Numbered from the stretch's first letter, positions 2,102 through 61,373 are shown. The stretch: DNA of 64,000 nt from Ottowia sp. (GCF_035325765.1 NZ_DAOKZG010000003.1:69998-133997); one strand, 5' to 3'. Translations and numbers: made by a program. The notes: generated by a model from the letters alone, not told the origin.

Positions 2102-2118
2102 GGTGCGACTCCTTCGCT

Positions 2119-10166: not shown

Positions 10167-10252
10167 CGATCGGCGATCAGCCTGCTGCGCGCAACCCGTT
10201 GACCCGTCATCGCGCGACGCCTCGGACGCCGCGTCAACCCCGTGCCGCGTGC

Positions 10253-10897: not shown

Positions 10898-11039
10898 GTC
10901 GATGCTCCTCGGGCCGGGTCGCCCATGGGTCCTGATGCGCGTGGCACCACGGCGCAGTGATAGCACCGCGCGTGCCGCTCCGGCAGGCGTGTGGCAATGC
11001 AACTGCCGGGAGTGGGGTGTTCCGCCAGGCTGTCGGCGC

Positions 11040-11975: not shown

Positions 11976-12003
11976 GTCGGGGCGCGGGTGCTGGCCTGCG
12001 AGT

Positions 12004-12750: not shown

Positions 12751-12801
12751 GGAAGGCGGGTGCGAAAGGCGTTGGAAGGTGGACGTGCAGCGCGAGACCG
12801 G

Positions 12802-13464
12802 TCAGGATGGCGGCAGCGCGATGCCGCGCGCGAACGGGAACACCTGCTCGATCGCGCGGGTCTCGGGCAGCACGTAGACGATGCCGGAGCGGCGCCGGAA
12901 CAGCGGCGCGATGGTGCGCTCATAGAAGGCCGGTGGCAGGTTGATGCAGCCAAACGAGATGCGGTTGTCGGCGGCGCTGGGCGTGCTCAGGCGCGCGGGG
13001 CGTTCTTCGCCCGGGACGTCGCGCACGCGGTGCATCGACAGGGCGGCATCGTAGTCGAGCCAGACGATGTCCTCGCCCCGCGTGTTGCGGCCGGGCTCGG
13101 TCGGGTAGCGGCCGGCGCTGGTGATCTTCTCGTGCGGCAGCACGTGCGCAAGCGGCCGGCTGCCGATGTCGGCCGGCGCGGTGTCGCCCCGCGCCGCGCC
13201 GAGCAGCACCGGCGCTTCGCCCAGCAGCCGTCCCTGGCGGTCGAACACCCACAGGTGCGCCGCCGGCTTGTCGAGCACGGCAAAGGCGCGCCCCTGCGCA
13301 TCGCCGCTGTGGTGGACCGCCGCCGCGAAGCGCGCGATGGGCGGCGGTGGCTCGGCCAGCGGCTGCGCGGCAGATGCCCCCAGCGTCAGTGCGAGACCGA
13401 CCGCCACGGCGGCCAGAGGGCGCGCCAGCGGGCAGGCGAGGATGGGGGCGGATCGCGGCATCAC
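12802..13464 (-). CDS. Exported L,D-transpeptidase-like (YkuD) protein
   Basis: Signal peptide; TSAGRY, SMHRV...NRISFGCIN catalytic His/Cys pattern. Confidence 0.75.
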   Translation of the reverse strand: MMPRSAPILACPLARPLAAVAVGLALTLGASAAQPLAEPPPPIARFAAAVHHSGDAQGRAFAVLDKPAAHLWVFDRQGRLLGEAPVLLGAARGDTAPADIGSRPLAHVLPHEKITSAGRYPTEPGRNTRGEDIVWLDYDAALSMHRVRDVPGEERPARLSTPSAADNRISFGCINLPPAFYERTIAPLFRRRSGIVYVLPETRAIEQVFPFARGIALPPS

Positions 13465-13636
13465 GACGAACGGGTTGCGCCGATCCTATCCGCTTCGCGC
13501 TGGCAGGTCCTTGCCGCGCGGCGTGGCTTGCCTCGGATGGCCAGCCTGTGGAATCATGGGCCTGTCCTGCGAACGCAGAAGCCCGTGGTGGGCGGGTCCG
13601 CCCCGGGTCTTGAAGAGCCGGGACGAGGAGACCATC

Positions 13637-14245
13637 ATGCGCATCGACGAGATGATTGCTGCCGTGCAAGGCGTGCTCGGCGTGACCGTGGACGGCAAGG
13701 CGGGGCCGGAGACCTGGGGCGCGATCTACGCGCGCCTGGTGCGCAAGCACATCGACGGCGTCGATCCGGCCGAGGCGATTGCGGAGGTCGACAGCCGCAG
13801 CGAGAAGAGCATCGCCACCCTGCAGCCCGAGGTGCGGCCGATGGCGCGTGCGCTGGTGCAGCGCGCCCGGGCCTCGGGCATCACGATCAAGGTCATCAGC
13901 GGCCTGCGCAGCTATGCCGAGCAGGATGCGCTGTATGCGCAAGGGCGCAGCGCGCCCGGCCCGGTGGTGACGAATGCACGCGCCGGCTATTCGAACCACA
14001 ATTTCGGCATCGCCTTCGACATCGGCGTGTTCGAGGGCAGCCGCTACCTGTCCGACTCACCCAAATACAAGGCGGTGGGCGTGCTCGGGGTCGACCTGGG
14101 GCTCGAGTGGGGCGGCAACTGGCGCACCATCGTGGATCAGCCGCACTACCAGCTGCGCCCGACCTGGGCGCTGGACCTGCCCGAGCGCCAGATGCTGGCC
14201 GAGCTGCGCGCGCGCCGCCAGCGTGGGCAGGGCGTCTACGCCTGA
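13637..14245 (+). CDS. M15-family (L-Ala-D-Glu type) peptidoglycan peptidase, endolysin-like
   Basis: SGLRSYAEQDALYAQGR, SNHNFGIAFD, LEWGGNW, DQPHYQ; N-terminal VDGKAGPETW recalls a PG-binding motif; RBS GAGGAG. Confidence 0.88.
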   Translation: MRIDEMIAAVQGVLGVTVDGKAGPETWGAIYARLVRKHIDGVDPAEAIAEVDSRSEKSIATLQPEVRPMARALVQRARASGITIKVISGLRSYAEQDALYAQGRSAPGPVVTNARAGYSNHNFGIAFDIGVFEGSRYLSDSPKYKAVGVLGVDLGLEWGGNWRTIVDQPHYQLRPTWALDLPERQMLAELRARRQRGQGVYA

Positions 14246-18900: not shown

Positions 18901-19435
18901 GCGGCTGGGGCGAGCCCATCGGGAACAGGTCGATCAGGCCGCCGCGCACCGCGTATTCGCCCGGGCTCACCACCTGCGACACGTGGCTGTAGCCGGCCAG
19001 CGTGAGCTGGCTCTTCAGCGCCGCCTCGTCCAGCCGCTGCCCCTGCTTGAAGTGGAAGGTGTGGCCCGCGAGGAAGGCCGGCGGCGCCAGACGGTACAGC
19101 GCCGTGGTGGCGGGCAGCAACACCACGTCGGCCTGGCGCTGGCGGATCGCCCAGAGCGTGGCCAGGCGCTCGCTGATCAGGTCGTGGTGCGGCGAGAAGC
19201 TGTCGTAGGGCAGCGTTTCCCAGTCCGGGAACAGCGTCACGCGCAGGGTCGGCTCGAACAGCGCCAGCTCCCCCTGCAGGCGGCGCGCATCGGCGGCGTC
19301 GGCTGTGACGATGGCGCAGAGGCGGCCCGCGGCCTGCTCGCGCGCGGCCAGCCGCGCCAGCAGCAGCGCGTCGGCGGAGCCGGGCGGGCGGGGCAGGGCG
19401 TGGCGTTTGCCGGGGGTGAGCGAAGGCAGGTCCAT
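15923..19435 (-). CDS. mfd: Transcription-repair coupling factor Mfd
   Basis: 1170 aa; FPDWETLPYD, CarD-like GDPVVHAQHGIGRY, GDVGFGKT, DEEH, QLRGRVGR, TRG motif. Confidence 0.98.
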   Translation of the reverse strand: MDLPSLTPGKRHALPRPPGSADALLLARLAAREQAAGRLCAIVTADAADARRLQGELALFEPTLRVTLFPDWETLPYDSFSPHHDLISERLATLWAIRQRQADVVLLPATTALYRLAPPAFLAGHTFHFKQGQRLDEAALKSQLTLAGYSHVSQVVSPGEYAVRGGLIDLFPMGSPQPLRVDLFDDEIDSIRAFDPDTQRSLYPVPEVRLLPGREFPLDEEARARFRHRWRELLEGDPTRSRIYKDMADGVASAGIEYYLPLFFEHTATVFDYLGEDATLVLHGDLEASFQQFAQDTRERWRLAQGDPERPVLPPEALFLSAEAFYRDASGYRQLALRVRAAEPDGAPAPAASTPFAALPDLSVARNAEDPLGRLAAHLRATPRRVLIVAESAGRRESLLDFLRASHIDPPSFDSLAEFESAGGARLGITHAALATGFAWLEGDIDFVTEAELFASSAGARRRRRQEQASDLEALIKDLSELKVGDPVVHAQHGIGRYRGLVNLDVGATNPDGSPAPQEFLHLEYAKEAVLYVPVSQLHLISRYTGVAAEEAPLHRLGGNQWEKARRKAAEQVRDTAAELLNIYARRAARAGHAFRFSAPDYEQFAADFGFDETPDQNAAIHAVIQDLISPRPMDRLVCGDVGFGKTEVALRAAFIAVTGGKQVALLAPTTLLAEQHYQTLADRFARWPVKIAQMSRFASGKETTAALKGLADGSVDIVVGTHKLLSQKTQFKNLGLLIIDEEHRFGVRQKEAIKQLRAEVDVLTLTATPIPRTMGMALEGLRDLSVIATAPERRLAIKTFVRSESNGIIREAVLRELKRGGQVYFLHNEVETIQNRREALQKILPEARIAVAHGQMPERELERVMRDFVAQRHNLLLCSTIIETGIDVPTANTIVITRADKFGLAQLHQLRGRVGRSHHQAYAYLLVPDLQSLSRPAEQRLDAIQQMEELGSGFYLAMHDLEIRGAGEVLGEHQSGNIMEIGFQLYNDMLAEAVRSLKAGREPDLLAPMQAATDINLHAPALLPTDYCGDVQLRLSFYKRLATARTDEQLDRLVEEIVDRFGKLPKPAQTLIDVHRLRVLAQRYGVLKVDAAPGVIHVSFQPNPPIDPLAIIHLIQKNRHVKLAGNDKLRIEKALPEPRARAQMVRDVLRSLGQPRASETAAETAAALA

Positions 19436-19621: not shown

Positions 19622-22114
19622 ATGTCCCAAGCTCCCGAATCCATCGCCCGGCGTTTTGGCAGTGGCCAGGCCGTGTTGCGCCAGGAAGACGACGCCCTGC
19701 TGCAGGGGCGCGGCCGCTATGTCGACGATCTGGGGGAGGCGGGTGATGGCTGGCTGGTGCTGGTGCGTTCGCCCCATGCCCATGCGCGCATCGCCGGCAT
19801 CGATCTGGAGGCGGCGCGCGCCATGCCGGGCGTGCGCGGTGCCTGGAGCGGCGCCGACCTGGTGGCCGCGGGCGTGCCGGCACTCGATGCCGGCGCGCCC
19901 TTCAAGCGCGCCGACGGCAGCGCCTGCGCGACGCCGGCACGTCACGCGCTGGCCGTGGACGTGGTGCGCCACGTGGGCGAGGTGGTGGCCGCGGTAGTGG
20001 CGGACACGCTGCAGCAGGCGCGTGACGCCGCCGAGGCGGTATTCGTCGACTACGAGGCGTTGCCGGCCGTGCCCAGCCTGGCGGCAGCGCTGGCGGCCGA
20101 GCACTGCGTCACGCCCGAGGCTCCCGACAACATCGCCTGCGAGGCGCGCCACGGCGACGCCACGGCCACCGATGCCGCCTTCGCGCAGGCTGCGCACGTG
20201 GTGCGGCTGGACCTGACGCACCAGCGCGTCGCGGCGCTCACGCTGGAGCCGCGCGCCGCGCGGGCGCGCTGGGACGGCGCCAGCGGGCGCGTCGACATGC
20301 ATGTGTCGACCCAGATGCCGACGGCGGTGCGTCGCGCCGTCGCCGCCGCGCTCGGCCTGGAGCCCGAGGCGGTGCGGGTGCGCGTGGGCGACGTCGGCGG
20401 TGGCTTCGGCATGAAGATCTCGCCGTATCCCGAATACATCCTCACGGCCTGGGCGGCGCGCGCCACTGGCGGCGCCGTGCGCTGGAGCGGCGAGCGCGGC
20501 GAGGAGTTCCTGACCACCACCCACGGGCGCGACCTGCAGGCGCACCTGGAGCTGGCGCTGGCGGCGGATGGCCGCATCCTCGCCCTGCGCGTGCATTCCT
20601 GGGGCAACGTCGGCGCCTACGCGCTCGGCACCGGCGTCTCCATCCAGCTCCTGATCGGCCTGTGGGTGCAGACCAGCGTGTACGACGTACCGGTGGTCGA
20701 CTTCCACGCGCGCGCCGTGCTGACGCACCAGGCGCCGACCGGCGCCTACCGCGGGGCGGGCCGGCCCGAGGCGATCTTCAACATCGAACGCCTGCTGGAC
20801 GAGGCGGCGCGCCAGACCGGCATCGACCGCGTGCAGCTGCGCCGGCGCAACTTCATCCGCCCCGAGCAGATGCCCTACACCAACCCGATGGCCCAGACCT
20901 ACGATGTCGGCCGCTTCGAGCACGTGCTGGACCAGGCCCTGCCGCTGGCGGACTGGGACGGCTTTGAAGCGCGTGCCGCAGCGTCACGGGCGCGCGGCCT
21001 GTGGCGCGGGCTGGGCATCGCCACGTTTCTGGAGTGGACCGGTGGCAACGTGTTCGAGGAACGGGTCACGGTCGAGATCAAGGCCCCCACGCTCCCCGCT
21101 GCGCGTGGTTCGCCGGCCTTGCAGGCCGCGGAGCCGCCAGAGTCGGCTCCTCCTCGGACCGTCCAGGCGCGCACTGGCGAGCCTGGAGCCGGGGCCCCCA
21201 GCCCCGAGGGCGCCCTCGCGCCTCGGGGCGATCCGGAGGCGTTCGAAGCCGACGGCATCATCGAAGTGTTCTCCGCCGTCAACCAGATGGGCCAGGGCAT
21301 CGCCACCTCGCTGGCGCAACTGGTGGTCGATACCTTCCAGGTGCCGATCGAGCGCGTGCGCGTGGTGCTGGGCGACACCGATCGCGGCAACGGCTTCGGC
21401 AGCGCCGGCTCGCGCTCGCTCTTCACCGGTGGCTCGGCCATGCACGCGGGCGCCGAGCGCACGGTCGCGGAAGCGCGCCAGCTGGCGGCGCGCGAGCTGG
21501 AGGCAGCGCCCGAGGACGTGCAGTACGCCGCCGGGCGTTTCCGCGTCGCCGGGACCGACCACGCGATCGGCCTGTTCGAGCTGGCGGCCAGGCAGCCGGG
21601 CAGCCGCATCTTCGTTGACCACACGCACACCGTCGCTGGCCCGACCTGGCCCAACGGCGCCCACATCTGCGAAGTCGAGCTCGACCCGCGGACCGGTGCC
21701 ATCGCCGTGATCGCCTACGCCAGCGTCAACGACGTCGGCCGCGTGGTCAACCCGATGATCGTGCGCGGCCAGCTCGACGGCGGCGCGGTGCAGGGCATCG
21801 GCCAGGCCCTGCTCGAGCGCGTGGTGTACGACGACGCGGGCCAGTTGCTGACCGGCAGCCTGATGGACTATGCCGCGCCGCGGGCCGACGACATCGCGGC
21901 GTGCTTTCGCACCGAAATGGACGAGTCCACGCCCTGCACCAACAACGCCATGGGCGTCAAGGGCGTGGGCGAACTCGGCACCATTGGCGCCACGCCCTGC
22001 GTGGTCAACGCCGTGGCCGACGCGCTGGCGCGCGGCGGCCGTCCCGAGCTGGCGCCGCGCCTGCAGATGCCGCTCACGCCGGCGCGCCTGTGGGCGCTGC
22101 TGCATGAGGAGTGA
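19622..22114 (+). CDS. Xanthine dehydrogenase / CoxL-family molybdopterin-binding large subunit
   Basis: EDDALLQGRGRYVDDL, VGGGFGMK, AYRGAGRPE, GQG, GFGSAGSRS, GQLDGGAVQGIGQAL, KGVGELG; start ATG 19622. Confidence 0.92.
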   Translation: MSQAPESIARRFGSGQAVLRQEDDALLQGRGRYVDDLGEAGDGWLVLVRSPHAHARIAGIDLEAARAMPGVRGAWSGADLVAAGVPALDAGAPFKRADGSACATPARHALAVDVVRHVGEVVAAVVADTLQQARDAAEAVFVDYEALPAVPSLAAALAAEHCVTPEAPDNIACEARHGDATATDAAFAQAAHVVRLDLTHQRVAALTLEPRAARARWDGASGRVDMHVSTQMPTAVRRAVAAALGLEPEAVRVRVGDVGGGFGMKISPYPEYILTAWAARATGGAVRWSGERGEEFLTTTHGRDLQAHLELALAADGRILALRVHSWGNVGAYALGTGVSIQLLIGLWVQTSVYDVPVVDFHARAVLTHQAPTGAYRGAGRPEAIFNIERLLDEAARQTGIDRVQLRRRNFIRPEQMPYTNPMAQTYDVGRFEHVLDQALPLADWDGFEARAAASRARGLWRGLGIATFLEWTGGNVFEERVTVEIKAPTLPAARGSPALQAAEPPESAPPRTVQARTGEPGAGAPSPEGALAPRGDPEAFEADGIIEVFSAVNQMGQGIATSLAQLVVDTFQVPIERVRVVLGDTDRGNGFGSAGSRSLFTGGSAMHAGAERTVAEARQLAARELEAAPEDVQYAAGRFRVAGTDHAIGLFELAARQPGSRIFVDHTHTVAGPTWPNGAHICEVELDPRTGAIAVIAYASVNDVGRVVNPMIVRGQLDGGAVQGIGQALLERVVYDDAGQLLTGSLMDYAAPRADDIAACFRTEMDESTPCTNNAMGVKGVGELGTIGATPCVVNAVADALARGGRPELAPRLQMPLTPARLWALLHEE
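21083..21247. repeat. 165-bp palindrome-rich, REP-like insertion translated in frame within the Mo-enzyme
   Basis: 55 low-complexity residues between VTVEIK and ADGIIEV; four hairpins (21115-21127, 21130-21150, 21163-21186, 21201-21229). Confidence 0.65.
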
Positions 22115-51579: not shown

Positions 51580-52014
51580 ATGAAGATCGACCTCCCCGAA
51601 CAGAAGAAGCTGGTCTACGAGATGACCATCCCCATCCGCTGGGGCGACATGGATGCGATGGGGCACATCAACAATGCCGTGTATTTCCGCTACATGGAGA
51701 CCGCGCGCATCGACTGGTTCACCTCGCTCGGCCTGCAACCCGACCCGAAAGGCGAGGGCATCGTGATCGTCAACGCCTTCTGCAACTTCATCCGCCAGTT
51801 CGAGTATCCCGGCACGGTGCTGATCAGGACCTTTGTCAGCAACCCCGGACGCAGTTCGTTCGACACCTGGGCCACCATGGAACGTGCCGACCAGCCCGGC
51901 ATCCTGTGCGCCAGCGGCGGTGCGACCATCGTCTGGGTCGACTTCCCGGCGCAGAAATCGGCCCCGCTGCCGGGCTGGCTGCTGGAGGCCGTGGGCTTGG
52001 CCGCGCCACGCTGA
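51580..52014 (+). CDS. 4-hydroxybenzoyl-CoA-like acyl-CoA thioesterase
   Basis: RWGDMDAMGHINNAVYFRYMETAR hot-dog motif. Confidence 0.93.
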   Translation: MKIDLPEQKKLVYEMTIPIRWGDMDAMGHINNAVYFRYMETARIDWFTSLGLQPDPKGEGIVIVNAFCNFIRQFEYPGTVLIRTFVSNPGRSSFDTWATMERADQPGILCASGGATIVWVDFPAQKSAPLPGWLLEAVGLAAPR

Positions 52015-52045
52015 GCCCACTGCCGGGGTCGGCGCAAGGCCCATG

Positions 52046-52077
52046 AAAAAAACCCGCACGGCGCGCGCCGGCGGGTT
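52046..52077 (-). terminator. Rho-independent terminator downstream of the att copy (likely original tRNA-His terminator)
   Basis: Minus strand AACCCGC...GCGGGTT stem followed by T-run. Confidence 0.65.
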
Positions 52078-52088
52078 CCTTCAAATCC

Positions 52089-52139
52089 TGGGGTGGCTGA
52101 TGGGACTCGAACCCACGACAACCGGAATCACAATCCGGG
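52089..52139 (-). repeat. att site: 51-bp duplication of the tRNA-His 3' end
   Basis: Identical to 61297-61347; match stops just 5' of the anticodon arm. Confidence 0.95.
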
Positions 52140-52186
52140 GTTGTTGGTGTTTACGTGCGTTGATTGGTGTAGGTAAAATCCATGAA

Positions 52187-52199
52187 AATCAATGTCTTA
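52187..52199 (+). promoter_or_regulatory. IHF-binding consensus in att arm
   Basis: AATCAATGTCTTA matches WATCAANNNNTTR, between att core and arm repeats. Confidence 0.55.
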
Positions 52200-52254
52200 T
52201 CTGGTTTGTAGCCCGGACATGCGTTGATTGAAATACCGCAATATGGCGTCAAAA

Positions 52255-52287
52255 TGCCTACAGATTGCCTACAGATTGCCTACAGAT
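52255..52287 (+). repeat. Three tandem 11-bp repeats TGCCTACAGAT (putative integrase arm sites)
   Basis: Exact triplication ending at the integrase ATG; related pair at 61219-61240. Confidence 0.75.
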
Positions 52288-53643
52288 ATGAAAACGCCAC
52301 CGAGCAAAACCCGCCTGACAGTCCCCAAAATTGCCGCGTTCTCGTGTCCCGCAGGACGGGGACAAGCCTTCCTTTGGGACACACAAACGCCCGGCCTGGC
52401 GCTGCGCGTCAGTGCTCAAGGTCGGAAATCCTTTGTCCTGGAGGCACGCCTACGCGGCAAAACGATGCGCCTGACGATTGGCGACCCTGCGGCCTGGCCG
52501 CTGGGCGCCGCCCGCATCGAGGCCATGCGCCTAAAAATGCTGATCGACGCAGGCCACGACCCGCGCGAACTGGCCCGCCAGCAGGACGCCGAGCGCGAAG
52601 CCACCGAAGCTCAGGCCGAAGCCGAGCGCAAGGCTGCCGAAGCGCAGGCCGTAACCGTGGGCGAAATCTGGGGCCGCTACTTGACCGAGCGCCGCCCGCA
52701 CTGGGGCGAGCGTCACTATCAGGACCACCTAGACATGATGCGCGCCGGTGGCGAACCCAAGAAGCGCGGCAAGGGCGTCACGACGCCCGGCCCGTTGCAT
52801 CAGTTCGCCGCCGTGCGTCTGGTTGATATGGAGCCTGAGGCTGTGCAGGCATGGGCTGCCGAGGAAGCGCAGAGCCGCCCGACCCGCGCGCGCCTGGCGC
52901 TGCACCTGCTGCACGCCTTCCTGGCCTGGTGCACCGAGCAGCGCGACCTTGCCGACCTGGTGCCAGACAAGAACCCGGCCCGCAACCGCCGCGCGCGCGA
53001 AGTGCTGGGCAAGCCCCAGGCCAAGCGCGATGCGCTGCTGAAGGAGCAACTGCCGGCCTGGTTCGCCGCTGTGCGCGACATGAACAACCCGGCGCACGCG
53101 GCCTACCTGCAGGCGCTGCTGCTGACTGGCGCCCGGCCCGGCGAGCTGCAAGCCCTGTGCTGGGAGGATGTGGATAGCCGCTGGCGCAGCGTGGCCCTGC
53201 GCGACAAGGACGAATCCAAAGGCGGGCGCGATGGCTTCCGCCTGGTGCCCCTGACGCCCTACGTGCACTACCTGCTGGCGGGCCTGCCGCGCCGCAGCCT
53301 GTTCGTGTTCGCTGGTGCGACTGGTGCGCCGCTGCACCGGCCCAACGTGCAGCACACGAAGGCCTGCCGCATCGCTGGAATCGAGGGTCTGACACTGCAC
53401 GGCCTGCGCCGCAGCTTCGGCACGCTGGCCGAGTGGCAAGAAGTACCCGCGGGCGTGGTGGCGCAAATCATGGGCCACAAGCCCAGCGCCACCGCCGAAA
53501 AACACTACCGCGTGCGGCCGCTGGACCTGCTGCGCGTGCACCATGAGAAGCTGGAGCGCTGGATTCTGGAGCAGGCTGGCGTGCAGTTCGACGCCAGCAA
53601 GGAGCCCGGCAAGCTGCGCGCCGTTATTGCGTCAATATCTTAA
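52288..53643 (+). CDS. Tyrosine integrase with N-terminal arm-DNA-binding domain
   Basis: FLWDTQTPGLALRV...GRKSF arm domain; catalytic TGARPGE, HGLRR, MGH, HY; start ATG 52288. Confidence 0.95.
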   Translation: MKTPPSKTRLTVPKIAAFSCPAGRGQAFLWDTQTPGLALRVSAQGRKSFVLEARLRGKTMRLTIGDPAAWPLGAARIEAMRLKMLIDAGHDPRELARQQDAEREATEAQAEAERKAAEAQAVTVGEIWGRYLTERRPHWGERHYQDHLDMMRAGGEPKKRGKGVTTPGPLHQFAAVRLVDMEPEAVQAWAAEEAQSRPTRARLALHLLHAFLAWCTEQRDLADLVPDKNPARNRRAREVLGKPQAKRDALLKEQLPAWFAAVRDMNNPAHAAYLQALLLTGARPGELQALCWEDVDSRWRSVALRDKDESKGGRDGFRLVPLTPYVHYLLAGLPRRSLFVFAGATGAPLHRPNVQHTKACRIAGIEGLTLHGLRRSFGTLAEWQEVPAGVVAQIMGHKPSATAEKHYRVRPLDLLRVHHEKLERWILEQAGVQFDASKEPGKLRAVIASIS

Positions 53644-53655
53644 AAAAGGCATAAT

Positions 53656-53979
53656 ATGGATGCTTGGACGGTAGCACTGCACCCGCTGGCCGAATCCGAA
53701 TTGCTGGCCCTGCCTGCCGACATGCAAGCGCGATTCCTGCGCATTGCGGAGCTGCTGGAGGAATTCGGGCCGCAGCGTGTGGGCCTGCCCCATGTGCGCC
53801 CGCTGGAAAGCAAGCTGTGGGAGATGCGCATGAAAGGCAGGGACGGCATCGCCCGCGCCGTGTACGCCGCCGTCCAGGGCCGCTGCCTGCTGGTGCTGCA
53901 TGTGTTCGTCAAGAAGACCCAGGCGACACCACGCAAGGCGATAGACACCGCCCTGCAACGCTTGAAGGACGCCGCATGA
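53656..53979 (+). CDS. RelE/HigB-like toxin (Gp49/DUF891 type)
   Basis: LPHVRPL..KLWEMR...IARAVY...LHVFVKKTQATP. Confidence 0.88.
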   Translation: MDAWTVALHPLAESELLALPADMQARFLRIAELLEEFGPQRVGLPHVRPLESKLWEMRMKGRDGIARAVYAAVQGRCLLVLHVFVKKTQATPRKAIDTALQRLKDAA

Positions 53980-54254
53980 AGACGCTGAAAGACCTGAAGA
54001 CCGAACTGCTGGAGCACCCCGACACCCGCGCCGAATACGACGCCCTGGCCGATGAATCCGCCATGGCACGCGAGCTGATTGCTGCCCGCACCAGAGCCGG
54101 CCTGACGCAAGCCGAGGTGGCCGCGCGCATGGGCACCGGACAGAGCACGGTGGCCCGGCTGGAAAGCGGCAGGGGCACGCCATCGCTGCGCAGCGTGCAA
54201 CGCTACGCCCAGGCCGTGGGCTATCGCGCCGTGGTGCGCCTGGTGCACGGCTGA
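53976..54254 (+). CDS. XRE-family HTH antitoxin (HigA-like)
   Basis: ATGA overlap with toxin; RAEYDAL, ARTRAGLTQAEVAARMGTGQSTVARLESG. Confidence 0.9.
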   Translation: MKTLKDLKTELLEHPDTRAEYDALADESAMARELIAARTRAGLTQAEVAARMGTGQSTVARLESGRGTPSLRSVQRYAQAVGYRAVVRLVHG

Positions 54255-54360
54255 CCGAATCGCCCCAGCTAGGCAGGGCCGCAATCCTGCCGAAAAGCCA
54301 GTTCTCCCGCTGGCCTGCTGGGGCACTACAGACGGGAGCGCACCGGGGAGGGTGCAAGCC

Positions 54361-55128
54361 ATGAGCACAGAAAAGACATTCACGCGCCGAGAGCTGCTGG
54401 ATGCATTGTTGTCAGTGGGTGACGACGGTGACCCCTACAAATTCGAGCCAGACGGCATTTGGCTGGATAGCCCCCGTTCTGATTGGCACTCGCTCACACC
54501 GCAAGAGCAAGAAGACATCGCCGGATTTGACAGTGCAACAGCCAAGGATCACCCGCGCGACCCCGACCGCCTGCTTGTAGGGAGACCGCCGGCACCAGGC
54601 GACATGCTCCCTCTTCCGCTGCTGCCGTTCCCATTCACTTGCGTCGAGCTGCTGGAGTTTGAAGACGCCACAGGCAACGAGCTACGCAGCCGCTTACCGG
54701 CAGACGACGGCGAAGCACTGAAGCGGGCCGGCCATCTGAGGCAGCCGCAAGACCCAAGGCGCGAAGTCAAGCCCAACGCCGCCGACATTGTTCGCCTGCT
54801 CATCGGCGACCTGCGGCCCGAGGACATGGAGCCAGATGGGGACGAGGACGCCCAGGCGGCGCAAGCCGAGGCGAGCGCAGGCACTGCCAAGCGCGCTGCA
54901 CTGGTGGCGCGCCTGGAACACGAATGGCCCACGATTGAAGCCGACTTGAACGAGGCCAGCCGCAACGGGCTGGGCAAGGCTGCCCGTGCTGGAACGCGCG
55001 GATTCTGGCGCGTGGAAAAGGCGCGCGAGTGGGCGCAGCAGCGCGGCAAGCTGCGACAGCAAGCATCCGTGCGCCCACTGAACAGCCCCTGGCCCGGGGC
55101 CGTGCGCAAGCACCGGATGGAGGTCTGA
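54361..55128 (+). CDS. Hypothetical protein (acidic N-region, basic helical C-region)
   Basis: 255-aa open frame; C-terminal EWPTIEADLNEASRNGL...WRVEKAREWAQQRGKL looks folded; no family recognised. Confidence 0.7.
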   Translation: MSTEKTFTRRELLDALLSVGDDGDPYKFEPDGIWLDSPRSDWHSLTPQEQEDIAGFDSATAKDHPRDPDRLLVGRPPAPGDMLPLPLLPFPFTCVELLEFEDATGNELRSRLPADDGEALKRAGHLRQPQDPRREVKPNAADIVRLLIGDLRPEDMEPDGDEDAQAAQAEASAGTAKRAALVARLEHEWPTIEADLNEASRNGLGKAARAGTRGFWRVEKAREWAQQRGKLRQQASVRPLNSPWPGAVRKHRMEV

Positions 55129-55139
55129 ACTGGCGCCCC

Positions 55140-55204
55140 GAATCCGGGGCGAGTCTGGGCTTTTCATGGGCTTTTCATGGGCTTTTGCCGGATGAATCCG
55201 GGGC
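55140..55204. promoter_or_regulatory. Repeat cluster upstream of the replication operon
   Basis: TGGGCTTTTCA x2 plus partial third copy (55156-55186), bracketed by GAATCCGGGGC at 55140 and 55194. Confidence 0.55.
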
Positions 55205-55221
55205 CGGAATAGTCCGCTGCC

Positions 55222-55482
55222 ATGTCCTTCACCAATCGACATGGCACTATGGAAATCGCAGCATCCGAATCCCGCGCCGCTGGCGTGCAGCAGCCGCCGC
55301 TGGCGAGCATCACTCGCCCGACCGTTGACACGAATGCGGCAGCCTACTACCTGAATCGACGCCCCCAGACCCTGCGCGGCTGGGCATCTGCGGAGACATA
55401 CCCGGAGGGCTTGGCCCCTATCCGCATCAATGGCCGCCTGGCCTGGCCGGTGGCAGGCATCCGCGCGGCGCTCGGGGTGTGA
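55222..55482 (+). CDS. Excisionase/AlpA-like wHTH protein
   Basis: VDTNAAAYYLNRRPQTLRGWAS...PIRINGRLAWPV MerR-like pattern; start 55222 or 55249. Confidence 0.75.
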   Translation: MSFTNRHGTMEIAASESRAAGVQQPPLASITRPTVDTNAAAYYLNRRPQTLRGWASAETYPEGLAPIRINGRLAWPVAGIRAALGV

Positions 55483-55483
55483 C

Positions 55484-55849
55484 ATGGCCCCGGCAAACAA
55501 AAACGCCCCGGAGCTGCAACCCCGAGGCGTCAAACAAACAACCACCAAGCGCCATCATTTTAATAGCACGGGCGACCGGTTTCAAGGCACCGACAACCCG
55601 CGCCACCTGCGCGCCATCGCCGCCCTCCTGCGGCGCCCCATCAGCCGGCAGGAACTCGATAGCCGCTCGGGTGCTGCCAATGGCCCCGACCTGGTGGCCG
55701 AGCTGCGCGCCCGCGGCCTGGAGGTGCCTTGCCAGCGGATCAGGTTCATCGACCGTGACGGCCGCGTGTGCCGCCCAGGCGTCTACTCGTTCACTGCCGT
55801 CGACCGGCGCAAGGTGTATCAGTGGCAGGCCCGTAAGGGTGCCGCATGA
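55484..55849 (+). CDS. Small putative HTH protein
   Basis: In operon between excisionase-like gene and primase (ATGA overlap at 55846); PISRQELD...GPDLVAELRARGL. Confidence 0.65.
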   Translation: MAPANKNAPELQPRGVKQTTTKRHHFNSTGDRFQGTDNPRHLRAIAALLRRPISRQELDSRSGAANGPDLVAELRARGLEVPCQRIRFIDRDGRVCRPGVYSFTAVDRRKVYQWQARKGAA

Positions 55850-58038
55850 TGACCCCGGACATCGAGCGCGCCCGCGCCGCGCTGGCTGCAATTCCTGCCG
55901 ACCTGCCGCGCGATGAATGGGTGCAGGCTGGCATGGCTGCACAAGCCGCCGGCCTTGACTTCGACGCCTTCAACGACTGGAGCGCCCAGGCTGGCAACTA
56001 CAACGCCCGGGACGCACGCGACACCTGGCGCAGTTTCAAACCCGGCAAGGGCATCGGCGCTGGCACCTTGTTTCGCATGGCTGCCGAACACGGACACCAC
56101 GCCGCCGACAAGCCCCAGCAGAAAAGCCCCAGCAAGGCCCCTTCCCGGCCCGTGGCGGCGATTCGCCGGTCGGCCGCTGGGCAAGGCGCTGCTGAAGTTT
56201 GGGCGCGCTGTGAACCCGTTTCCGACCAGCACCCCTACGCCCATGCAAAGCGCCTGTCTGGTGAACCACTGGCCGGGCTGAGGCAAACGCCCCATGGCGA
56301 CAGCCTGCGCATTGCCGGGCAGTCTGTGGCGGGTTGGTTGGTGGTGCCAGCGCATGGCGCCGATGGTGAGCTGCAGAGCTTGCAGTTCATTCCGCCACCC
56401 GGGGTTGGCAAGAAGCTGAACCTGCCCGGCGCCAGTATGGCCGGCGCCCGGTTCACCGTGGGCACGCCCGAACTGGGACAGCCAGTCTACTTGGCCGAGG
56501 GCATCGGGGCCGCATGGGCCTGCTGGCAAGCGACTGGCTGCGCTGCAGTGTGCTGCTTCGGCTGGGGCAACGTCGCCCGTGTGGCCGCTGACCTGCGCCA
56601 GCGTGACGCATCGGCCAGCCTTGTGCTGATACCCGACACCGGCAAGGAGGCCGACGCCGACGAAATCGCACGCGAGCATGATTGCCTTGTCGCCAAGCTG
56701 CCCGATGGCCGGCCGGACAACTTCGACGCGAACGACTACGCCCAGACCGAAGATGGCGACGCGCTGGCCCAGTTGCTGGAACAAGCCAGCGAACCGCCAA
56801 GCCCGCTGGAATCGCACCCGCTGGCGCAATTCGTGGAGCCGACCGCCGAGCCTGTCCCACCGCGCTGGCTGCTGCCGGGCTTCATTGCCGAAGGCCTGGC
56901 CGTGGTTGCTGGTGGGCATGGATTCGGCAAGACAACTGCCCTGCTGCCGCTGGCCCTGGCCGCCGCAGGCATCCATGAGCCGGGCTATCCGCTGGCTCCG
57001 AAGCACTGGCGCCATGTGGTCTACGTGACCGAGGATGTGCCCCAGGCGCAGCGCATCATTGCTGGCCTGACGAGCTGGCTGGGCGTGGCGCGCGAGCTGG
57101 TGGCCGAGCGCCTGCACCTGGTGGAGGCGCGCCGCCTGCCGCCCCAGGAAGTGGCCCAGGTGGGCGCGCTGTATCGTCGGCGCTTCACGCGCACCGCGCA
57201 AGGTGTGGAGCTGCCGCCGCTGGTGGTCCTGGACACTCAGGCTGCCGTGCTGGCCGTCGAGTCCGAAAACGACAACGCCGAGCTGTCCGCCGCCATTGCG
57301 GCATTGAAGCAGCAATTTGCCGGCCTGCCTGTGTGGTTGGTGGCGCACGTGGCCAAGGCAGCCATGAACCGCAGCGATGCCTTGAGCGCGAGGGGCGCGA
57401 GCGCAATCGAGGGCGACGCCCATCAGGTCCTGTTCCTGGTCAAGGAAGGCACCGACCACGACGCCACCCGCTGGCTGGTGCGCGGCAAAACACGCTTTGA
57501 AGCCCGCTGGCCCGAGCTGCAGGTGCACAGCTACATCGAGACTGTGCAGGCCCTGGACGCCTGGGGCGAGCCGGAGGAACTGGCGCTGCGCTGGGCGATT
57601 GCACGGCCGCCGGAAGGCACACGCCGGGAACTGGCCGACAAGGCGCGGCAGGAGGCCCGCCAGCGCGAGGAATCGGAGCTGCGGATGGCTGTTCGTGACG
57701 CCGTCCAGATGGCCTGGCAGGAGGGACACCCGCTAAGCCGCCGCGGCCTGCGTGGCAAGGTGCGCGGCAAGACCGCCGAAGTGGCGGGCTGCATCGAGGC
57801 TCTGCTGTCAGAGTCGTGGCTGGTGGAAATCCACGTTCCCGCGAAGGAGCGCGCCAATCCAGCCCGCTCGAATTTCCTGGTGAACCTGACCACCGATGAG
57901 CGCGACGCATTGCGCCGTGGTGAGCCCCTGCCAACGGAAAAAACCGCCGTTCCCGAGAGCTGGAAAAAGCCAATTCCGCTGGTTCCCGAGCCGGAGGCCG
58001 AAAACGAACCAGAAAGCGAGAAAGAGGCCACTGAATGA
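55846..58038 (+). CDS. Primase-helicase: PriCT-2 + TOPRIM-like + AAA_25/RepA-like helicase + possible C-terminal wHTH
   Basis: DEWVQAGMA...FNDWS (PriCT-2); YLAEG, LIPDT, DAND (TOPRIM); GGHGFGKT Walker A, VVLDT Walker B, ARGASA motif. Confidence 0.88.
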   Translation: MMTPDIERARAALAAIPADLPRDEWVQAGMAAQAAGLDFDAFNDWSAQAGNYNARDARDTWRSFKPGKGIGAGTLFRMAAEHGHHAADKPQQKSPSKAPSRPVAAIRRSAAGQGAAEVWARCEPVSDQHPYAHAKRLSGEPLAGLRQTPHGDSLRIAGQSVAGWLVVPAHGADGELQSLQFIPPPGVGKKLNLPGASMAGARFTVGTPELGQPVYLAEGIGAAWACWQATGCAAVCCFGWGNVARVAADLRQRDASASLVLIPDTGKEADADEIAREHDCLVAKLPDGRPDNFDANDYAQTEDGDALAQLLEQASEPPSPLESHPLAQFVEPTAEPVPPRWLLPGFIAEGLAVVAGGHGFGKTTALLPLALAAAGIHEPGYPLAPKHWRHVVYVTEDVPQAQRIIAGLTSWLGVARELVAERLHLVEARRLPPQEVAQVGALYRRRFTRTAQGVELPPLVVLDTQAAVLAVESENDNAELSAAIAALKQQFAGLPVWLVAHVAKAAMNRSDALSARGASAIEGDAHQVLFLVKEGTDHDATRWLVRGKTRFEARWPELQVHSYIETVQALDAWGEPEELALRWAIARPPEGTRRELADKARQEARQREESELRMAVRDAVQMAWQEGHPLSRRGLRGKVRGKTAEVAGCIEALLSESWLVEIHVPAKERANPARSNFLVNLTTDERDALRRGEPLPTEKTAVPESWKKPIPLVPEPEAENEPESEKEATE

Positions 58039-58192
58039 CACCCCGCGCCGCTGGTTCCCGTTCCGCTGGTTCCCCTAAGGAAAAACCAGCGGGAACCAGC
58101 GGGAATGGGCTTGGTTGCCCCATTCCCCGCTGTGGTGGTTCCCATGACTTCTGGAACCACCGGGAACCACCGGGAACCACCGGGAACCACCG
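57976..58192. repeat. Iteron-like array, putative replication origin
   Basis: About 10 copies of GGAACCA(C/G)CG in both orientations, including exact GGAACCACCG x4 at 58153-58192. Confidence 0.8.
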
Positions 58193-58254
58193 GGCCAATT
58201 CTGACGGGTATTTGCTGGCGGCCCACGACAGCCAGCACGACGAGGACAGCAAGC

Positions 58255-58647
58255 ATGATTGACGCATTGATCCAAGGTCGCCTGCACGGCGCACCCCAGC
58301 AGCGCACGGGTTCATCCGGCAAACCTTTCACCACCGCCAAGGTCCGGGCACCGGCCGGCAACGGTGACAGCTTCTTTGTCAACGTCATCGTTTTCAGCAC
58401 GACAGCGCAGACGGCATTGCTGGCACTGGGCGACGGCGACAGCGTGGCGTTGTCCGGCGAGATGACGCCAAAGGTCTGGCAGCCCAAGGACGGTGGCGAG
58501 CCACGCCCAGCCCTGGACCTGCTGGCGCACGCCGTGCTGACCCCCTATCACGTCAAGCGCCGGCGCGACGCCGTGGCGCCAGCGAAAGCCGAGCGCGCCA
58601 CGGATGAAAGCTGGCACGCAGGCGCGCCGGAGTCGCTGGATTTCTGA
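58255..58647 (+). CDS. Single-stranded DNA-binding protein (SSB-like)
   Basis: GRL..APQQRTGSSGKPF, GDSVALSG OB-fold pattern, acidic tail ending ESLDF; start ATG 58255. Confidence 0.8.
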   Translation: MIDALIQGRLHGAPQQRTGSSGKPFTTAKVRAPAGNGDSFFVNVIVFSTTAQTALLALGDGDSVALSGEMTPKVWQPKDGGEPRPALDLLAHAVLTPYHVKRRRDAVAPAKAERATDESWHAGAPESLDF

Positions 58648-58678
58648 GGCCCGCCTCTATTCTTGAAGGAGAAAACCC

Positions 58679-59206
58679 ATGACCACTGCCCTGAAGTACG
58701 TCCATCAGCAACTGGCATCCACCGGCTTCGTCATCATCGACATCGAGGCCGCCATCACCCTGCGCCCTGACCTGTTCAACACCGGCATGGAAGCAGGTTT
58801 TCTGCTGGGAGAAGCCAAAGCGCGCAACCAATTCGCAGACGGGAACCTCAAGGTCAGCACGTACTGCGCTGAGTTGGAGGAACTCGGCCGCACCGTCACC
58901 GTGTTGGCGCGCTCCCGGCAGCGGCTGGAAGAACGCATCACCGAGCTGACGGGCTACACCGTGCTGGGGCTGCAGGCCGAGCGCCCGGATGACACTCGAC
59001 CGAGCCAGGCCGAAGTCGCTGCGCAAGCACAACTCGAACGCGAACGGCACCGACAGGCGAAAGAGGCCGGGGAATTGGCCAAGCTGCGCGCCACGGCAGC
59101 GAAGGAACCGCCGGCACACGACTGTCCGCTGCGAAGGGAAATCCTGCGAGCACGTCAGGAAGTCAGCCGACGTGAGGAATCTGAACTGCGCCGGCCATCG
59201 CCATGA
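58679..59206 (+). CDS. Hypothetical protein with coiled-coil C-terminus
   Basis: Strong RBS GAAGGAG; GC3-rich codons; E/R/Q-rich C-terminal half. Confidence 0.75.
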   Translation: MTTALKYVHQQLASTGFVIIDIEAAITLRPDLFNTGMEAGFLLGEAKARNQFADGNLKVSTYCAELEELGRTVTVLARSRQRLEERITELTGYTVLGLQAERPDDTRPSQAEVAAQAQLERERHRQAKEAGELAKLRATAAKEPPAHDCPLRREILRARQEVSRREESELRRPSP

Positions 59207-59263
59207 TTGCCGTCAGCGTGCAGGCATTGGAGAATGTGTTTCCTTCTTCGAGGCTGATTGAAT

Positions 59264-59530
59264 ATGACCCCGACAGACGATTCTTCCGACGCGCCGATAC
59301 CGGGCAGCAACTATCGCGAGAGCAATTGGCTCGCATGGTTGGACAATCCATCCGAACGCGACGTGGCTTGGCTGGCAGCCCGCCAGGAAAAGGTGAGGCA
59401 GGCTGGCGAACGGTTGCGCGCGCGGCTGTCTTCCGTGCCCTTCTACGCGAAGCGGGCAGCGGAGTGCAAGGAGACCGAGGGCTCGGAAGCTCCGTATTGG
59501 GAGGGCCTGGTGACGGGAACCTACAACTAG
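59264..59530 (+). CDS. Hypothetical small protein
   Basis: GC3-rich codons in this frame versus the overlapping 59203 frame; Trp-rich NWLAWLD. Confidence 0.6.
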   Translation: MTPTDDSSDAPIPGSNYRESNWLAWLDNPSERDVAWLAARQEKVRQAGERLRARLSSVPFYAKRAAECKETEGSEAPYWEGLVTGTYN

Positions 59531-59603
59531 GCGTCCCGCTGATCCGGGCCATCATCCCGGCGAACTTGCCAAGTGATTTGGGGAAGCCCCTCCCGGCAGG
59601 GGG

Positions 59604-60185
59604 ATGATGATGGGCAGCGGACGCAAGTACGGGAAGCGCTGCACCGACAACATGCGCAGCGTGGACGTGCGGAACCTGCGACGTGATGGGCTGCTCAAGC
59701 CGGGCTCGGTTTTCGAGCTGAGTTGGACGTGGCGCGGCAAGGCGGAGGCAGCCATCGCCGTGGCTGTGACTGCGGACCGAGTGCGGTTCGTCTATTGCAA
59801 CAGTGAGCGTGGCGGCCCCTGGGAGGATGTGGATTGCACCGCCATGCTGGACCACACACCCATGCACTTCGGTGGCGTCCAGACTTGGTGGCGCTGCCCC
59901 TGCTGTCATCGGCGCGCGGCGCTGCTCTACGTGGGCCGCACGATGGCCTGCCGCCACTGCTGGAATTTGGCCTATCGGAGCGAGCGTGAGACGGAGGAAG
60001 ACCGCGCATTGCGCCGAGCAGGTCGGATCCGCCGTCGCCTGGGCTGGGAGCCTGGCATTGCCAACGGGCGGGGTACCAAGCCCAAGGGGATGCATTGGCG
60101 AACGTTCTGGAAGCTGTGCGCCGAACACGACGCCTACGCGAATCAGGCGCTGGGGATGTTGCAGGCGTGGCTGCGGCGCAGGTAG
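59604..60185 (+). CDS. Hypothetical basic protein with Zn-ribbon-like Cys motifs
   Basis: WRCPCC...ACRHC..LAY.SE; KPKGMHWRTF; Arg/Trp rich. Confidence 0.8.
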   Translation: MMMGSGRKYGKRCTDNMRSVDVRNLRRDGLLKPGSVFELSWTWRGKAEAAIAVAVTADRVRFVYCNSERGGPWEDVDCTAMLDHTPMHFGGVQTWWRCPCCHRRAALLYVGRTMACRHCWNLAYRSERETEEDRALRRAGRIRRRLGWEPGIANGRGTKPKGMHWRTFWKLCAEHDAYANQALGMLQAWLRRR

Positions 60186-60257
60186 ACCCTGGACCTGATG
60201 CCCGCCCCGGTGCCGGCAGACAGGCCAAAGGTCAGGCCTGAACCCTGGCGTCATCAG

Positions 60258-60539
60258 TCAAAACCCGCTGCTGGCCCACAGTTGCGCCTGGCGAGGCGTC
60301 AGCACGTTGTCGGCTGTGATCCATTGCAGCCGGCTGCCGGTGCGCACGCCGACCTGCACCGTCCCCAGCACCAGGCGAACAGCCACAAGCGGGCCGGCCT
60401 TGCTGGGCCAGGGATGCAACGCCCAGCGTGTCGGGGCGACGGTTGCGGCCACGCGTTCCTGTCTGGAAGGTTCAAGCGCTGGCTGAACAGGAAGCGGATC
60501 ATCACGCCAGCAATAGGCGCGCGGAGTGCGGACATACAT
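60258..60539 (-). CDS. Hypothetical 93-aa protein, convergent to the main operon
   Basis: RBS GGAG before ATG 60539; GC3-rich codons in the C-terminal half. Confidence 0.55.
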   Translation of the reverse strand: MYVRTPRAYCWRDDPLPVQPALEPSRQERVAATVAPTRWALHPWPSKAGPLVAVRLVLGTVQVGVRTGSRLQWITADNVLTPRQAQLWASSGF

Positions 60540-60714
60540 GAAAGCTCCAGTCACAGCACCACACCCGCACGGGACCATCCCATGGGGCGGCAGGTGCTCA
60601 ACTGGAATGGGTGCTAGTGCTCGGCTTTCATGGCAGCACGAATGGTAGCGCGATGGACGAACAAATTGAATCGCGGCGCATGTGAATCAGTGACGCGTGA
60701 AAGTGGCTTCAGGC

Positions 60715-60856
60715 CTATGTCGGCTGCAGTCGGTTTCCCGTTGTTTCTTTCCGGAACATCGGGGCCACGCCTGAGTGAATCTGCCTTGGTTGCGACCTCG
60801 CCGCGCGCCTGAGCCGCGTCGTATTCATCAGCCAGCCGCATCTTGGCCCGCGCTTG
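60715..60856 (-). pseudogene. Fragment of a phage-type protein (RLADEYDAAQARGEVA motif)
   Basis: Motif recalled from prophage proteins; no plausible start, truncated at both ends. Confidence 0.4.
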
Positions 60857-61081
60857 TACGTGGAGGAGGTTCGCACAGGCCGCGCTGAATTGGCGGCTGT
60901 GTCGGTGAGGAAATATCCCGCCACGATGAATGCCGAGAAAATTATCTCGACCCTGCATCCCAACGCCCGAAGCGATGGCAAGGACGCTCTCATTGTAATT
61001 GCCCCGACCTGGAGCCCGGCATCAGCCAGAGCTTCGCCGAGCGCCAGCCTGGCGACTACACGACCGCCGATGAGGCAATGA
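60857..61081 (+). pseudogene. C-terminal fragment of a possible RelE/BECR-like nuclease domain
   Basis: YVEEVRTGRAELAAVSVRKYP recalls the C-terminal strands of RelE/BECR-fold domains; N-terminus missing. Confidence 0.3.
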
Positions 61082-61218
61082 ATGCAGCGCTCGCGCTACT
61101 CAAGGACCACCCCGAGGCCATCGGCGCCACGGCCCTGCGCAAATCCTGACCCATCCGCGCTGGTGGCGGCATCACCGCCCCGGCGCACAGTTCACGCTCG
61201 GCCTGAATTTGGCGAAAG

Positions 61219-61240
61219 TGCCTACGATGTGCCTACAGCA
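61219..61240 (+). repeat. Two 11-bp arm-type repeats (TGCCTACGATG, TGCCTACAGCA)
   Basis: Same TGCCTAC core and 11-bp period as 52255-52287, ~57 bp inside the tRNA-side att. Confidence 0.7.
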
Positions 61241-61296
61241 CCCCGGAAAAGAAGAAGAACGCTATGCAAATGCTAGCGGGCTTTCATCATTGGGTG

Positions 61297-61373
61297 TGGG
61301 GTGGCTGATGGGACTCGAACCCACGACAACCGGAATCACAATCCGGGACTCTACCAACTGAGCTACAGCCACC
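61297..61373 (-). tRNA. tRNA-His(GTG), integration target
   Basis: Minus strand GGTGGCTGTAGCTCAGTTGGTAGAG...CCGGA-TTGTGAT-TCCGG...GGTTCGAGTCCC...CCA, includes G-1. Confidence 0.97.

Follow-up and report, generated by a model that had tools for sequence, protein, structure and literature searches.

A tRNA-His island of Ottowia sp. as the putative integrated form of a helper-dependent, self-replicating mobile element

We analyzed a 64-kb window of the genome of Ottowia sp. (the whole stretch of 64,000 nucleotides, from whose first letter all positions are counted) and describe here a genomic island of 9,208 bp, counted as its interior plus one terminal repeat, that lies at the 3' end of a tRNA-His gene. 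The host assembly comprises 3.38 Mb in 104 contigs and is 96% complete. The island is, with high probability, a functional integrative and replicative mobile element: it is bounded by an exact repeat of the tRNA end, encodes an integrase and a primase-helicase, and belongs to a family of which some members are found as circles. As to how it travels, the explanation that we prefer, and to which we give an even chance, is that it is the integrated form of an excisable, self-replicating hitcher that is moved between cells by a helper, with a phage favored in that role; the identification of the helper as a phage rests on analogy with known elements and is more tentative, falling somewhat short of an even chance.

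Island boundaries and integration

The island is delimited by an exact direct repeat of 51 nt (51 of 51 positions identical) at 52089-52139 and 61297-61347, with a spacing of 9208. The proximal att copy (61297-61347) belongs to tRNA-His(gtg) itself, a gene at 61297-61372 on the minus strand whose 3'-terminal 51 nt it forms; the distal copy (52089-52139) is a displaced duplicate of these 51 nt and adjoins the terminator of a chromosomal thioesterase gene. A first-pass annotation, made from the sequence of the window, had described this 51-bp att duplication at tRNA-His, and the repeat and the placement of its second copy within the tRNA gene confirm it. Site-specific recombination brought the island into the 3' end of tRNA-His. 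Its genes are all on the plus strand and have a GC content at third codon positions (GC3) of 0.72-0.81, versus 0.88-0.89 in the host genes that flank it on both sides, and a blastn comparison of the island with the whole assembly finds it there in a single copy.

Arm-type integrase sites are present inside both ends. Three copies of TGCCTACAGAT with an 11-bp period lie at 52255-52287 on the plus strand, directly 5' of the int ATG, and two further sites, TGCCTACG and TGCCTACA (one of them a variant), lie with the same 11-bp period at 61219-61237 on the plus strand, 60 bp from the att core. The motif TGCCTACR has seven matches in the window, five of them at the two ends of the island; none of 100 shuffles reaches seven.

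The integrase gene follows the left arm sites (52288-53643, plus strand; the longest open reading frame (ORF) begins at 52228), and its start is probably the ATG at 52288. The product is a tyrosine integrase with an arm-binding N-terminal domain: it contains Arm-DNA-bind_3 (PF13356) and Phage_integrase (PF00589, 2.4e-13) and matches phrog_1 at 5e-42, and its translation includes the catalytic R...HxxR...Y residues, in TGARPGE, LHGLRR, and EKHY. Both domains and these residues agree with the first reading of the integrase as intact. Integrases 38-57% identical to that of the island are carried by nine related loci.

A family of related islands

Among species-representative genomes (of Aquabacterium, Polaromonas, Rhodoferax, Ottowia, Caenimonas, Malikia, and others), 24 loci have relatives of the primase, and metagenomes add at least 137. 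The family has a core of conserved order, consisting of int, a gene like orf86 of the island, one or both of two winged helix-turn-helix (wHTH) families, and the primase; its hosts are mainly Comamonadaceae, with other Burkholderiales also represented, and the islands, of 7-9 kb, are found at other tRNA genes. Repeats of the tRNA 3' end bound examples at tRNA-Lys (L004, 7.1 kb, and L016, 7.5 kb, each with a repeat of 49 nt), at tRNA-Met (L015, 7.3 kb, 48 nt), and at another tRNA-His (L025, 8.9 kb, 50 nt). With the shared core order, tRNA-3' repeats, and arm sites, the window island is a member of this family of tRNA-integrating int/Xis-fold/wHTH/PriCT_2-AAA_25 islands, of which we found no description in the full-text literature on DUF5681, int-alpA, and PICMI- and SatelliteFinder-type satellites.

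Gene content 3' of the primase varies among the relatives. Counted over 83 metagenome and IMG/VR loci, a VRR-NUC nuclease is present at 27, DUF5681 at 7, an SSB-like gene at 6, a Gp49/XRE pair at 5, and an orf193-like gene at 3. The VRR-NUC proteins of the relatives match endonuclease/resolvase PHROGs of phages, and one relative (L066) is catalogued in IMG/VR; both observations give the relatives a touch of phage and count toward the preferred reading. A reading of the relatives' DUF5681 protein as a small terminase was dropped: it matched PHROGs of unknown function only, had no match in the PDB, and gave one marginal phage match.

The distribution of the island and of its primase points to recent movement. 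In seven congeners the right-flank gene likewise accompanies tRNA-His, and the island is missing there: within 8-18 kb they have neither island genes nor a second repeat. A close homologue of the primase is present in about 14 of 251 sampled genomes of the taxonomic family, scattered across genera. By its single copy, its absence from the seven congeners, and this scatter of homologues, the island is recent and mobile, and the comparison of tRNA-His loci in related genomes that had been suggested at the outset finds that it is not fixed in the genus.

A comparison with an empty site that includes both flanks failed, as the thioesterase gene of the left flank is not beside tRNA-His in any congener examined. 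In these comparisons (L058-L065) the counterpart of the left-flank thioesterase region, 51580-52088, does not adjoin tRNA-His, and several of these congeners have tRNA-Val(tac) 2-5 kb beyond tRNA-His. These sequences suggest a rearrangement of the tRNA-His site in this lineage, or the gain and loss of other islands at it.

Ottowia beijingensis GCS-AN-3 has two loci with a primase and an SSB-like gene, L012 and L026, at the two ends of a 4.0-Mb contig. One of them also has an orf175-like gene, neither has an integrase of the family type, and L012 has transposase-like ORFs 5' of the primase; both resemble replication modules that have decayed or been captured.

Circular forms of family members

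Three metagenome relatives share 77 or 127 nt between their two ends, as is typical of a circular assembly, and correspond to circles of 6.8-8.2 kb (L116, a contig of 8,315 nt; L122, 6,952 nt; L146, 7,638 nt). All three carry int, a wHTH gene, the primase, and a VRR-NUC gene; L116 and L122 add an orf86-like gene, and L122 also a DUF5681 gene. Host genes are absent from all of them, and so is any complete tRNA. L116 and L122 have a segment resembling a tRNA 3' end 160-230 bp 5' of int, with two arm repeats on each side; the arm repeat of L122, TTGCCTACAGA, is the same as that of the window island and has the same position before int, and the arm layout at the right end of the island mirrors that of both circles. 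The attP of these two circles (arm sites, tRNA-like core, arm sites, int) is the predicted join of the island ends, indicating that members of this family excise precisely and persist as circles. From this correspondence we infer that the window island itself would also excise to a circle.

An AT-rich conserved segment with TTGATTG...AATCAA inverted elements is shared by the window (52150-52230) and by L116 and L122, where it is placed after the tRNA-like core and before the int-proximal arm sites; a host factor (e.g. IHF) or Xis may bind there.

The excisionase-like protein

For the small protein orf86 (55222-55482, plus strand), an AlphaFold (AF2) model with a pLDDT of 75 has the topology strand-helix-helix-wing-helix and matches BldC, the Xis of mycobacteriophage Pukovnik, and the excisionase RdfS with probabilities of 0.99-1.0, which places it among winged-helix proteins of the excisionase/MerR type. 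Homologues are present at 12 of the 24 genome loci and at 51 of the 83 metagenome loci. The excisionase-like gene that had been proposed here thus stands at the level of its Xis-type fold, and its assignment to the AlpA family by sequence does not: orf86 has no Pfam match to AlpA or HTH_17 even at E<=0.1, hhalign aligns it with true AlpA at a probability of 2.5%, and the assignment was rejected after Pfam, NCBIfam, hhalign, and a profile search of the PDB all gave no support. On the strength of the predicted fold, orf86 may be a functional analogue of AlpA/Xis.

The replication module

The primase-helicase (55846-58038, plus strand; 730 aa) is built from PriCT_2, a primase core resembling Toprim, and a RepA-like helicase of the AAA_25 type. 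Its primase core matches phage primase PHROGs, and with the PriCT_2 and AAA_25 domains these matches uphold the primase-helicase of the first-pass annotation. The iterons named there are likewise real as an array: all nine window matches to GGGAACCA[GC]CG (four reverse and five forward, with at most one mismatch) fall inside 216 bp at 57977-58192, at or just past the end of the primase gene. This array is a candidate replication origin; in the relatives, no comparable clusters of 9-mers were found 3' of their primases.

Directly 5' of the primase is orf139 (55430-55849, plus strand), whose true start is probably internal and whose C-terminal part, some 90 aa long, resembles DNA-binding domains. 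It is conserved at eight genome loci with 22 invariant residues, and has no match in Pfam, PHROGs, or the PDB. On the other side of the iterons is the gene for an SSB-like OB-fold protein that begins MIDAL (58255-58647, plus strand). With its start moved to 58255, this protein scores 26.6 bits with PF00436 against a cut-off of 26; the single-stranded DNA-binding protein that had been read here therefore passes the threshold of its family, by a marginal score only. SSB-like homologues, 59-66% identical, follow the primases at L012, L026, and L027.

The int-toxin-antitoxin unit and its RNA

Between int and the excisionase-like gene, a Gp49-family (HigB/RelE-like) toxin (53656-53979, plus strand; PF05973 at 2.6e-28) is followed by an XRE-type helix-turn-helix (HTH) antitoxin (53976-54254, plus strand; HTH_3 at 5e-13 and phrog_1373 at 3.5e-24), the ORF of which overlaps the toxin stop. 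The toxin-antitoxin (TA) pair of the earlier reading is in this way identified by Pfam as Gp49 toxin plus XRE HTH antitoxin.

A feature missing from that reading is an int-alpA RNA motif (Rfam RF02996) at 54262-54336 on the plus strand, with a score of 48.7 bits (gathering score 35.8). The motif closes the int-TA unit on its 3' side, directly past the antitoxin stop and 5' of orf258. Nine of 11 related elements examined also have it directly 3' of int or of their TA pair, which makes the RNA a conserved part of the family. The consensus of the RF02996 model has an outer stem and then a U-rich tail, so that the motif could terminate transcription or form the 3' end of a small RNA.

Near-orphan genes, orf193, and the right arm

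The first-pass annotation had also remarked on a co-oriented block of orphan genes, and this description fits three of its members. Two of these near-orphans are orf258 (54352-55128, plus strand; GC3 0.72) and orf175 (58679-59206, plus strand; GC3 0.72), and the third is orf90 (59258-59530, plus strand; GC3 0.75), an orphan of uncertain coding status. Scans of Pfam, PHROGs, NCBIfam, and PADLOC gave no family match for orf258 or for orf90. Among 5.8 billion proteins orf258 has 12 homologues, and its C-terminal part of about 78 aa, the sole part that is shared, is common to three related islands. For orf175 there are two database matches only, one being the window's own protein, and a 41% match at L012 in O. 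beijingensis. A search for functional leads for these three genes found none.

The description does not fit orf193 (59604-60185, plus strand), the last gene of the replication operon, which belongs to a very large conserved family. Its product is a C4 Zn-ribbon protein in which four Cys and the motif KPKGMHW are invariant. None of its 79 word-indexed homologues is annotated in Pfam, and a profile search returns 17,592 representatives of 50%-identity clusters at E<=1e-3 and 10,869 at 1e-10. No match to it was found in Pfam, PHROGs, NCBIfam, or PADLOC, and its confident AF2 model (pLDDT 87) has no fold match in the PDB or BFVD. Readings of orf193 as a small HUH relaxase or as an activator of the Ogr/Delta type found no support and were dropped.

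Homologues of orf193 occur in three members of this island family, and in other islands (L027, L029) they terminate AlpA-Toprim_3/DUF3987-SSB operons; distant homologues are present on two circular, low-GC IMG/VR contigs of about 10 kb. The settings of the family, over loci L027, L029, L042, L043, and L149-L151, are the ends of primase or HTH operons in islands, small non-mobilizable Rep/ParA plasmids, and these circular IMG/VR contigs. The one that was annotated, L043, is arranged like a PICI, with int, repressor, cro, a PriCT_1 primase, and a D5 helicase. From this range of settings orf193 looks like a general gene of small replicons, not one specific to satellites.

The right arm is gene-poor. 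Its region 60198-61218 has weak codon-position signal and no library matches, and no convincing gene was found in the 1.1 kb up to the tRNA (60198-61296). A minus-strand ORF of 114 aa (60614-60958) and a start-less frame that ends at 61149 (...DYTTADEAMNAALALLKDHPEA...) were noted there, and these short ORFs look like remnants of pseudogenes. The stretch 60198-61296 could hold an unrecognized cis site, whether pac, cos, or oriT.

How the island may move between cells

Scans of the island ORFs against Pfam, PHROGs, NCBIfam, and PADLOC gave no match to a capsid, portal, terminase, or tail protein, to Sid, Psu, or Delta, to a relaxase, or to a type IV secretion system (T4SS), so that the absence of these functions, claimed from the first reading, stands in all four libraries. 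Because the island has no gene for a capsid, packaging, a relaxase, or a T4SS, its transfer between cells would need a helper. A phage is favored for this role because the co-oriented layout of 7-9 kb, with int, a regulator RNA, a Xis/AlpA analogue, a primase, and an origin, is most like that of Gram-negative PICI, P4, and PICMI. On this reading, the integrase and the Xis-fold protein orf86 would excise the element as a circle; the primase-helicase, with orf139 (a wHTH protein) and the SSB-like protein, would replicate the circle from the iteron origin; the Gp49/XRE pair would stabilize the element or serve as defense cargo; the int-alpA RNA would end or regulate the int-TA unit; and a helper phage would package the element, probably as multimers. 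No recognized defense system is present in the island, where PADLOC matches generic HTH and toxin proteins only, and a reading of it as a defense island was rejected on those grounds.

Several results weigh against a phage as the helper. No phage helper or packaging function was identified: the assembly has no match to Phage_capsid (HK97), TerL_ATPase, Terminase_6N, or Phage_portal (PF05065, PF03354, PF03237, PF04860), although it is split into 104 contigs, is 96% complete, and has some phage-like virion genes on contig C46, and no shared cos or pac site emerged, as blastn of the island against the genome returns the island itself and tRNA-like pieces only. Among 50,697 phage records there is no match to orf139, orf175, or orf193 and no meaningful match to the relatives' DUF5681 gene, and the primase has partial matches only, at about 30% identity. 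The N-terminal domain of the primase is common on conjugative plasmids, which make up 1159 of the 1212 plasmid records matched. The circles from metagenomes are proof of circular DNA, not of encapsidation. Finally, homologues of orf193 reside on small Rep/ParA plasmids that are typed as non-mobilizable, in Rhodobacteraceae and others; it is the best conserved of the supposed orphan genes, and the earlier proposal that these genes serve the exploitation of a helper is weakened by its presence there.

These same plasmid links bear on a different reading, in which the island is an integrative mobilizable element (IME) and a conjugative element in the same cell provides the relaxase and T4SS that act on an unrecognized oriT, perhaps within 60198-61296. 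We judge this unlikely. PriCT_2/Toprim with a RepA-like AAA_25 helicase is a typical replication set of plasmids and integrative conjugative elements (ICEs), in keeping with the conjugative plasmids matched by the primase; the orf193 homologues on small plasmids typed non-mobilizable also speak for it, as does the lack of a phage link for the island genes queried; and Trb-type T4SS genes (VirB8, TrbI) lie on contig C46 of the same assembly. It is opposed by the content of the elements, since neither the island nor the bounded relatives nor the circles examined have a relaxase, a coupling protein, or a known mobilization gene, and VirB4 has no Pfam match in the assembly. The layout and the int-alpA RNA, moreover, are those of satellite-type int-alpA islands, unlike those of known IMEs.

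Contig C46 (26,933 nt, outside the window) contains several parts of mobile elements. Its T4SS genes VirB8 and TrbI are at 12-5344, a phage-like block at about 8810-14048 includes the podovirus internal-virion proteins phrog_992 and phrog_418, a second PriCT_2 plus AAA_25 protein is encoded at 16912-19005 (minus strand), and an integrase (20225-21337, minus strand) and a bona fide AlpA (PF05930, 26410-26631) follow. These parts may be helpers, or may belong to a second hitcher of this genome.

An integrative, plasmid-like episome that has no helper, alternates between chromosome and circle, is kept by its TA pair, and spreads by chance (through generalized transduction, vesicles, or transformation) is comparably improbable. 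The replication module is complete with a candidate origin and is accompanied by a TA pair, the free circles of relatives are abundant enough to be assembled, and true small plasmids that encode Rep and ParA carry relatives of orf193, all of which would suit such an episome. The island is without partition or multimer-resolution genes, though, and the spread of the family over many genera and tRNA sites implies efficient horizontal transfer. PICI and P4, elements of the same layout, are helper-dependent. The same need for a helper holds for PICMI, where it has been tested (PMC10803314).

That the island is a fixed, inactive remnant that has lost excision and replication is very unlikely: the gene-poor, pseudogene-like right arm of 1.1 kb, the marginal SSB signal, and the decayed relative L012 of O. 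beijingensis, interrupted by transposase-like ORFs, could be read in this way, and are countered by repeats that are identical at 51 of 51 positions, core ORFs that are full length relative to those of the relatives, an integrase with its catalytic residues, arm sites intact at both ends, and the absence of the island from congeners.

The preferred reading, a hitcher moved by a helper, has a more far-reaching version: an undescribed betaproteobacterial satellite family that hijacks its helper without terS, rpp, sid, psu, or cpm, with the orf193 family as a general packaging or transfer factor of helper-dependent replicons. We consider this version improbable as it stands.

Most genomic islands have no known way to move, and int-xis-primase hitchers may make up a large share of them. 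The hitcher families that have been tested are few (P4, PICI, PLE, and PICMI) and come nearly all from Enterobacteria, Vibrio, and Firmicutes. The present island adds an example that is cleanly delimited and seems intact, from the Comamonadaceae, which are common in wastewater and freshwater. It has a defined family, relatives that occur naturally as circles, and an attP architecture amenable to direct testing, and is a system in which the int-alpA RNA and the orf193 family could gain a function. Were its helper a phage, satellite biology would reach a new host group and a hijack strategy that is free of markers; were it conjugative, a satellite-like layout could not be read as phage dependence. 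Specialists would be surprised only by the demonstration of a helper together with a new hijack mechanism.

Comparison with known satellites and islands

In size and economy the island is like the PICMI of Vibrionaceae (PMC10803314), which span 6-9 kb and whose co-oriented core genes are int, a gene for a small protein of the Xis/AlpA type, a further small gene, and the gene for a primase; they too are without capsid-remodeling or packaging genes, have gene-poor stretches, and have space for defense or TA cargo. In PICMI, int, alpA, and prim alone are enough for excision, replication, and transfer, and concatemers are packaged (PMC10803314). Of the PICMI markers, the island has the integrase (PF00589, PF00239, or PF07508), through its PF00589 match at 2.4e-13. 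The AlpA marker (PF05930 or PF12728) is absent, orf86 being without a Pfam match; the primase is PriCT_2 plus AAA_25 instead of DUF3987 (PF13148) or DUF5906 (PF19263); and the integration site is tRNA-His, not next to fis. The host also differs in being betaproteobacterial, and no iolg-type gene overlaps the int of the island.

With Gram-negative PICI of the EcCICFT073 type the island shares site-specific integration and the order int, regulator, primase-replicase, origin, with no Stl-type repressor evident; it differs in being without terS, rpp, ppi, or a capsid-morphogenesis gene. It has at most three of the five PICI components of SatelliteFinder (int and pri-rep, with the regulator at the level of fold only), terS and capsid morphogenesis being absent, and would at best be a 'Type C PICI', a class that the authors of SatelliteFinder set aside as unreliable (PMC10085698). 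The capsid, portal, head-tail connector, and TerL markers of cfPICI and prophages are absent from the island.

Like P4, the island is about 10 kb in size, sits at a tRNA gene with an arm-binding integrase of the P4 type, and encodes a multidomain primase-helicase beside its candidate origin. Neither the psu-delta-sid operon nor epsilon has a PHROG, Pfam, or NCBIfam match on the island ORFs, and no P4-type immunity RNA (C4/isrK, CI) reaches the Rfam threshold (isrK scores 20.7 bits against a gathering score of 50). The helicase is of the RepA-like AAA_25 type in the island versus D5/SF3 in P4, and no P2-type prophage markers were detected. The mark of ICEs and IMEs, a relaxase with or without a coupling protein and T4SS, is absent from the island ORFs.

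Elements with int and alpA had been noticed before, as Rfam named the RF02996 int-alpA RNA after these genes. The island resembles such int-alpA RNA islands, and the int-alpA-primase islands of the CP4-57 type, in having this RNA, above its gathering score, 3' of int; those islands differ in having a bona fide AlpA and DUF3987 primases. Deposited 'plasmids' of about 9 kb from Proteus, E. coli, and Salmonella (hits H13, H16, H21, and H22) encode PriCT-2/toprim proteins with DUF5906 or VapE proteins, and may be excised satellite-type elements deposited as plasmids.

The tycheposons of Prochlorococcus (bioRxiv 10.1101/2020.12.28.424599), compared here by the description of their layout, provide a further parallel: like them, the island has an inward-facing, tRNA-targeting tyrosine integrase at one end, a small primase/helicase replication module, an excisionase-like gene, and no transfer genes. 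Tycheposons belong to another phylum, and the island is without their nutrient-acquisition cargo; some tycheposons are PICI-like and some occur in viral-fraction DNA (bioRxiv 10.1101/2020.12.28.424599). The first-pass annotation had proposed an unclassified betaproteobacterial satellite. The unclassified element survives these comparisons, being capsid-less and replication-equipped, outside the marker sets of PICMI, P4, PICI, and cfPICI, and provided with relatives of its own; the satellite part is plausible but weaker, as none of the island genes queried links it to a phage. Judged by its sequence, the island would represent an undescribed member type of the int-xis-primase hitcher kind, tycheposon- and PICI-like in its general description.

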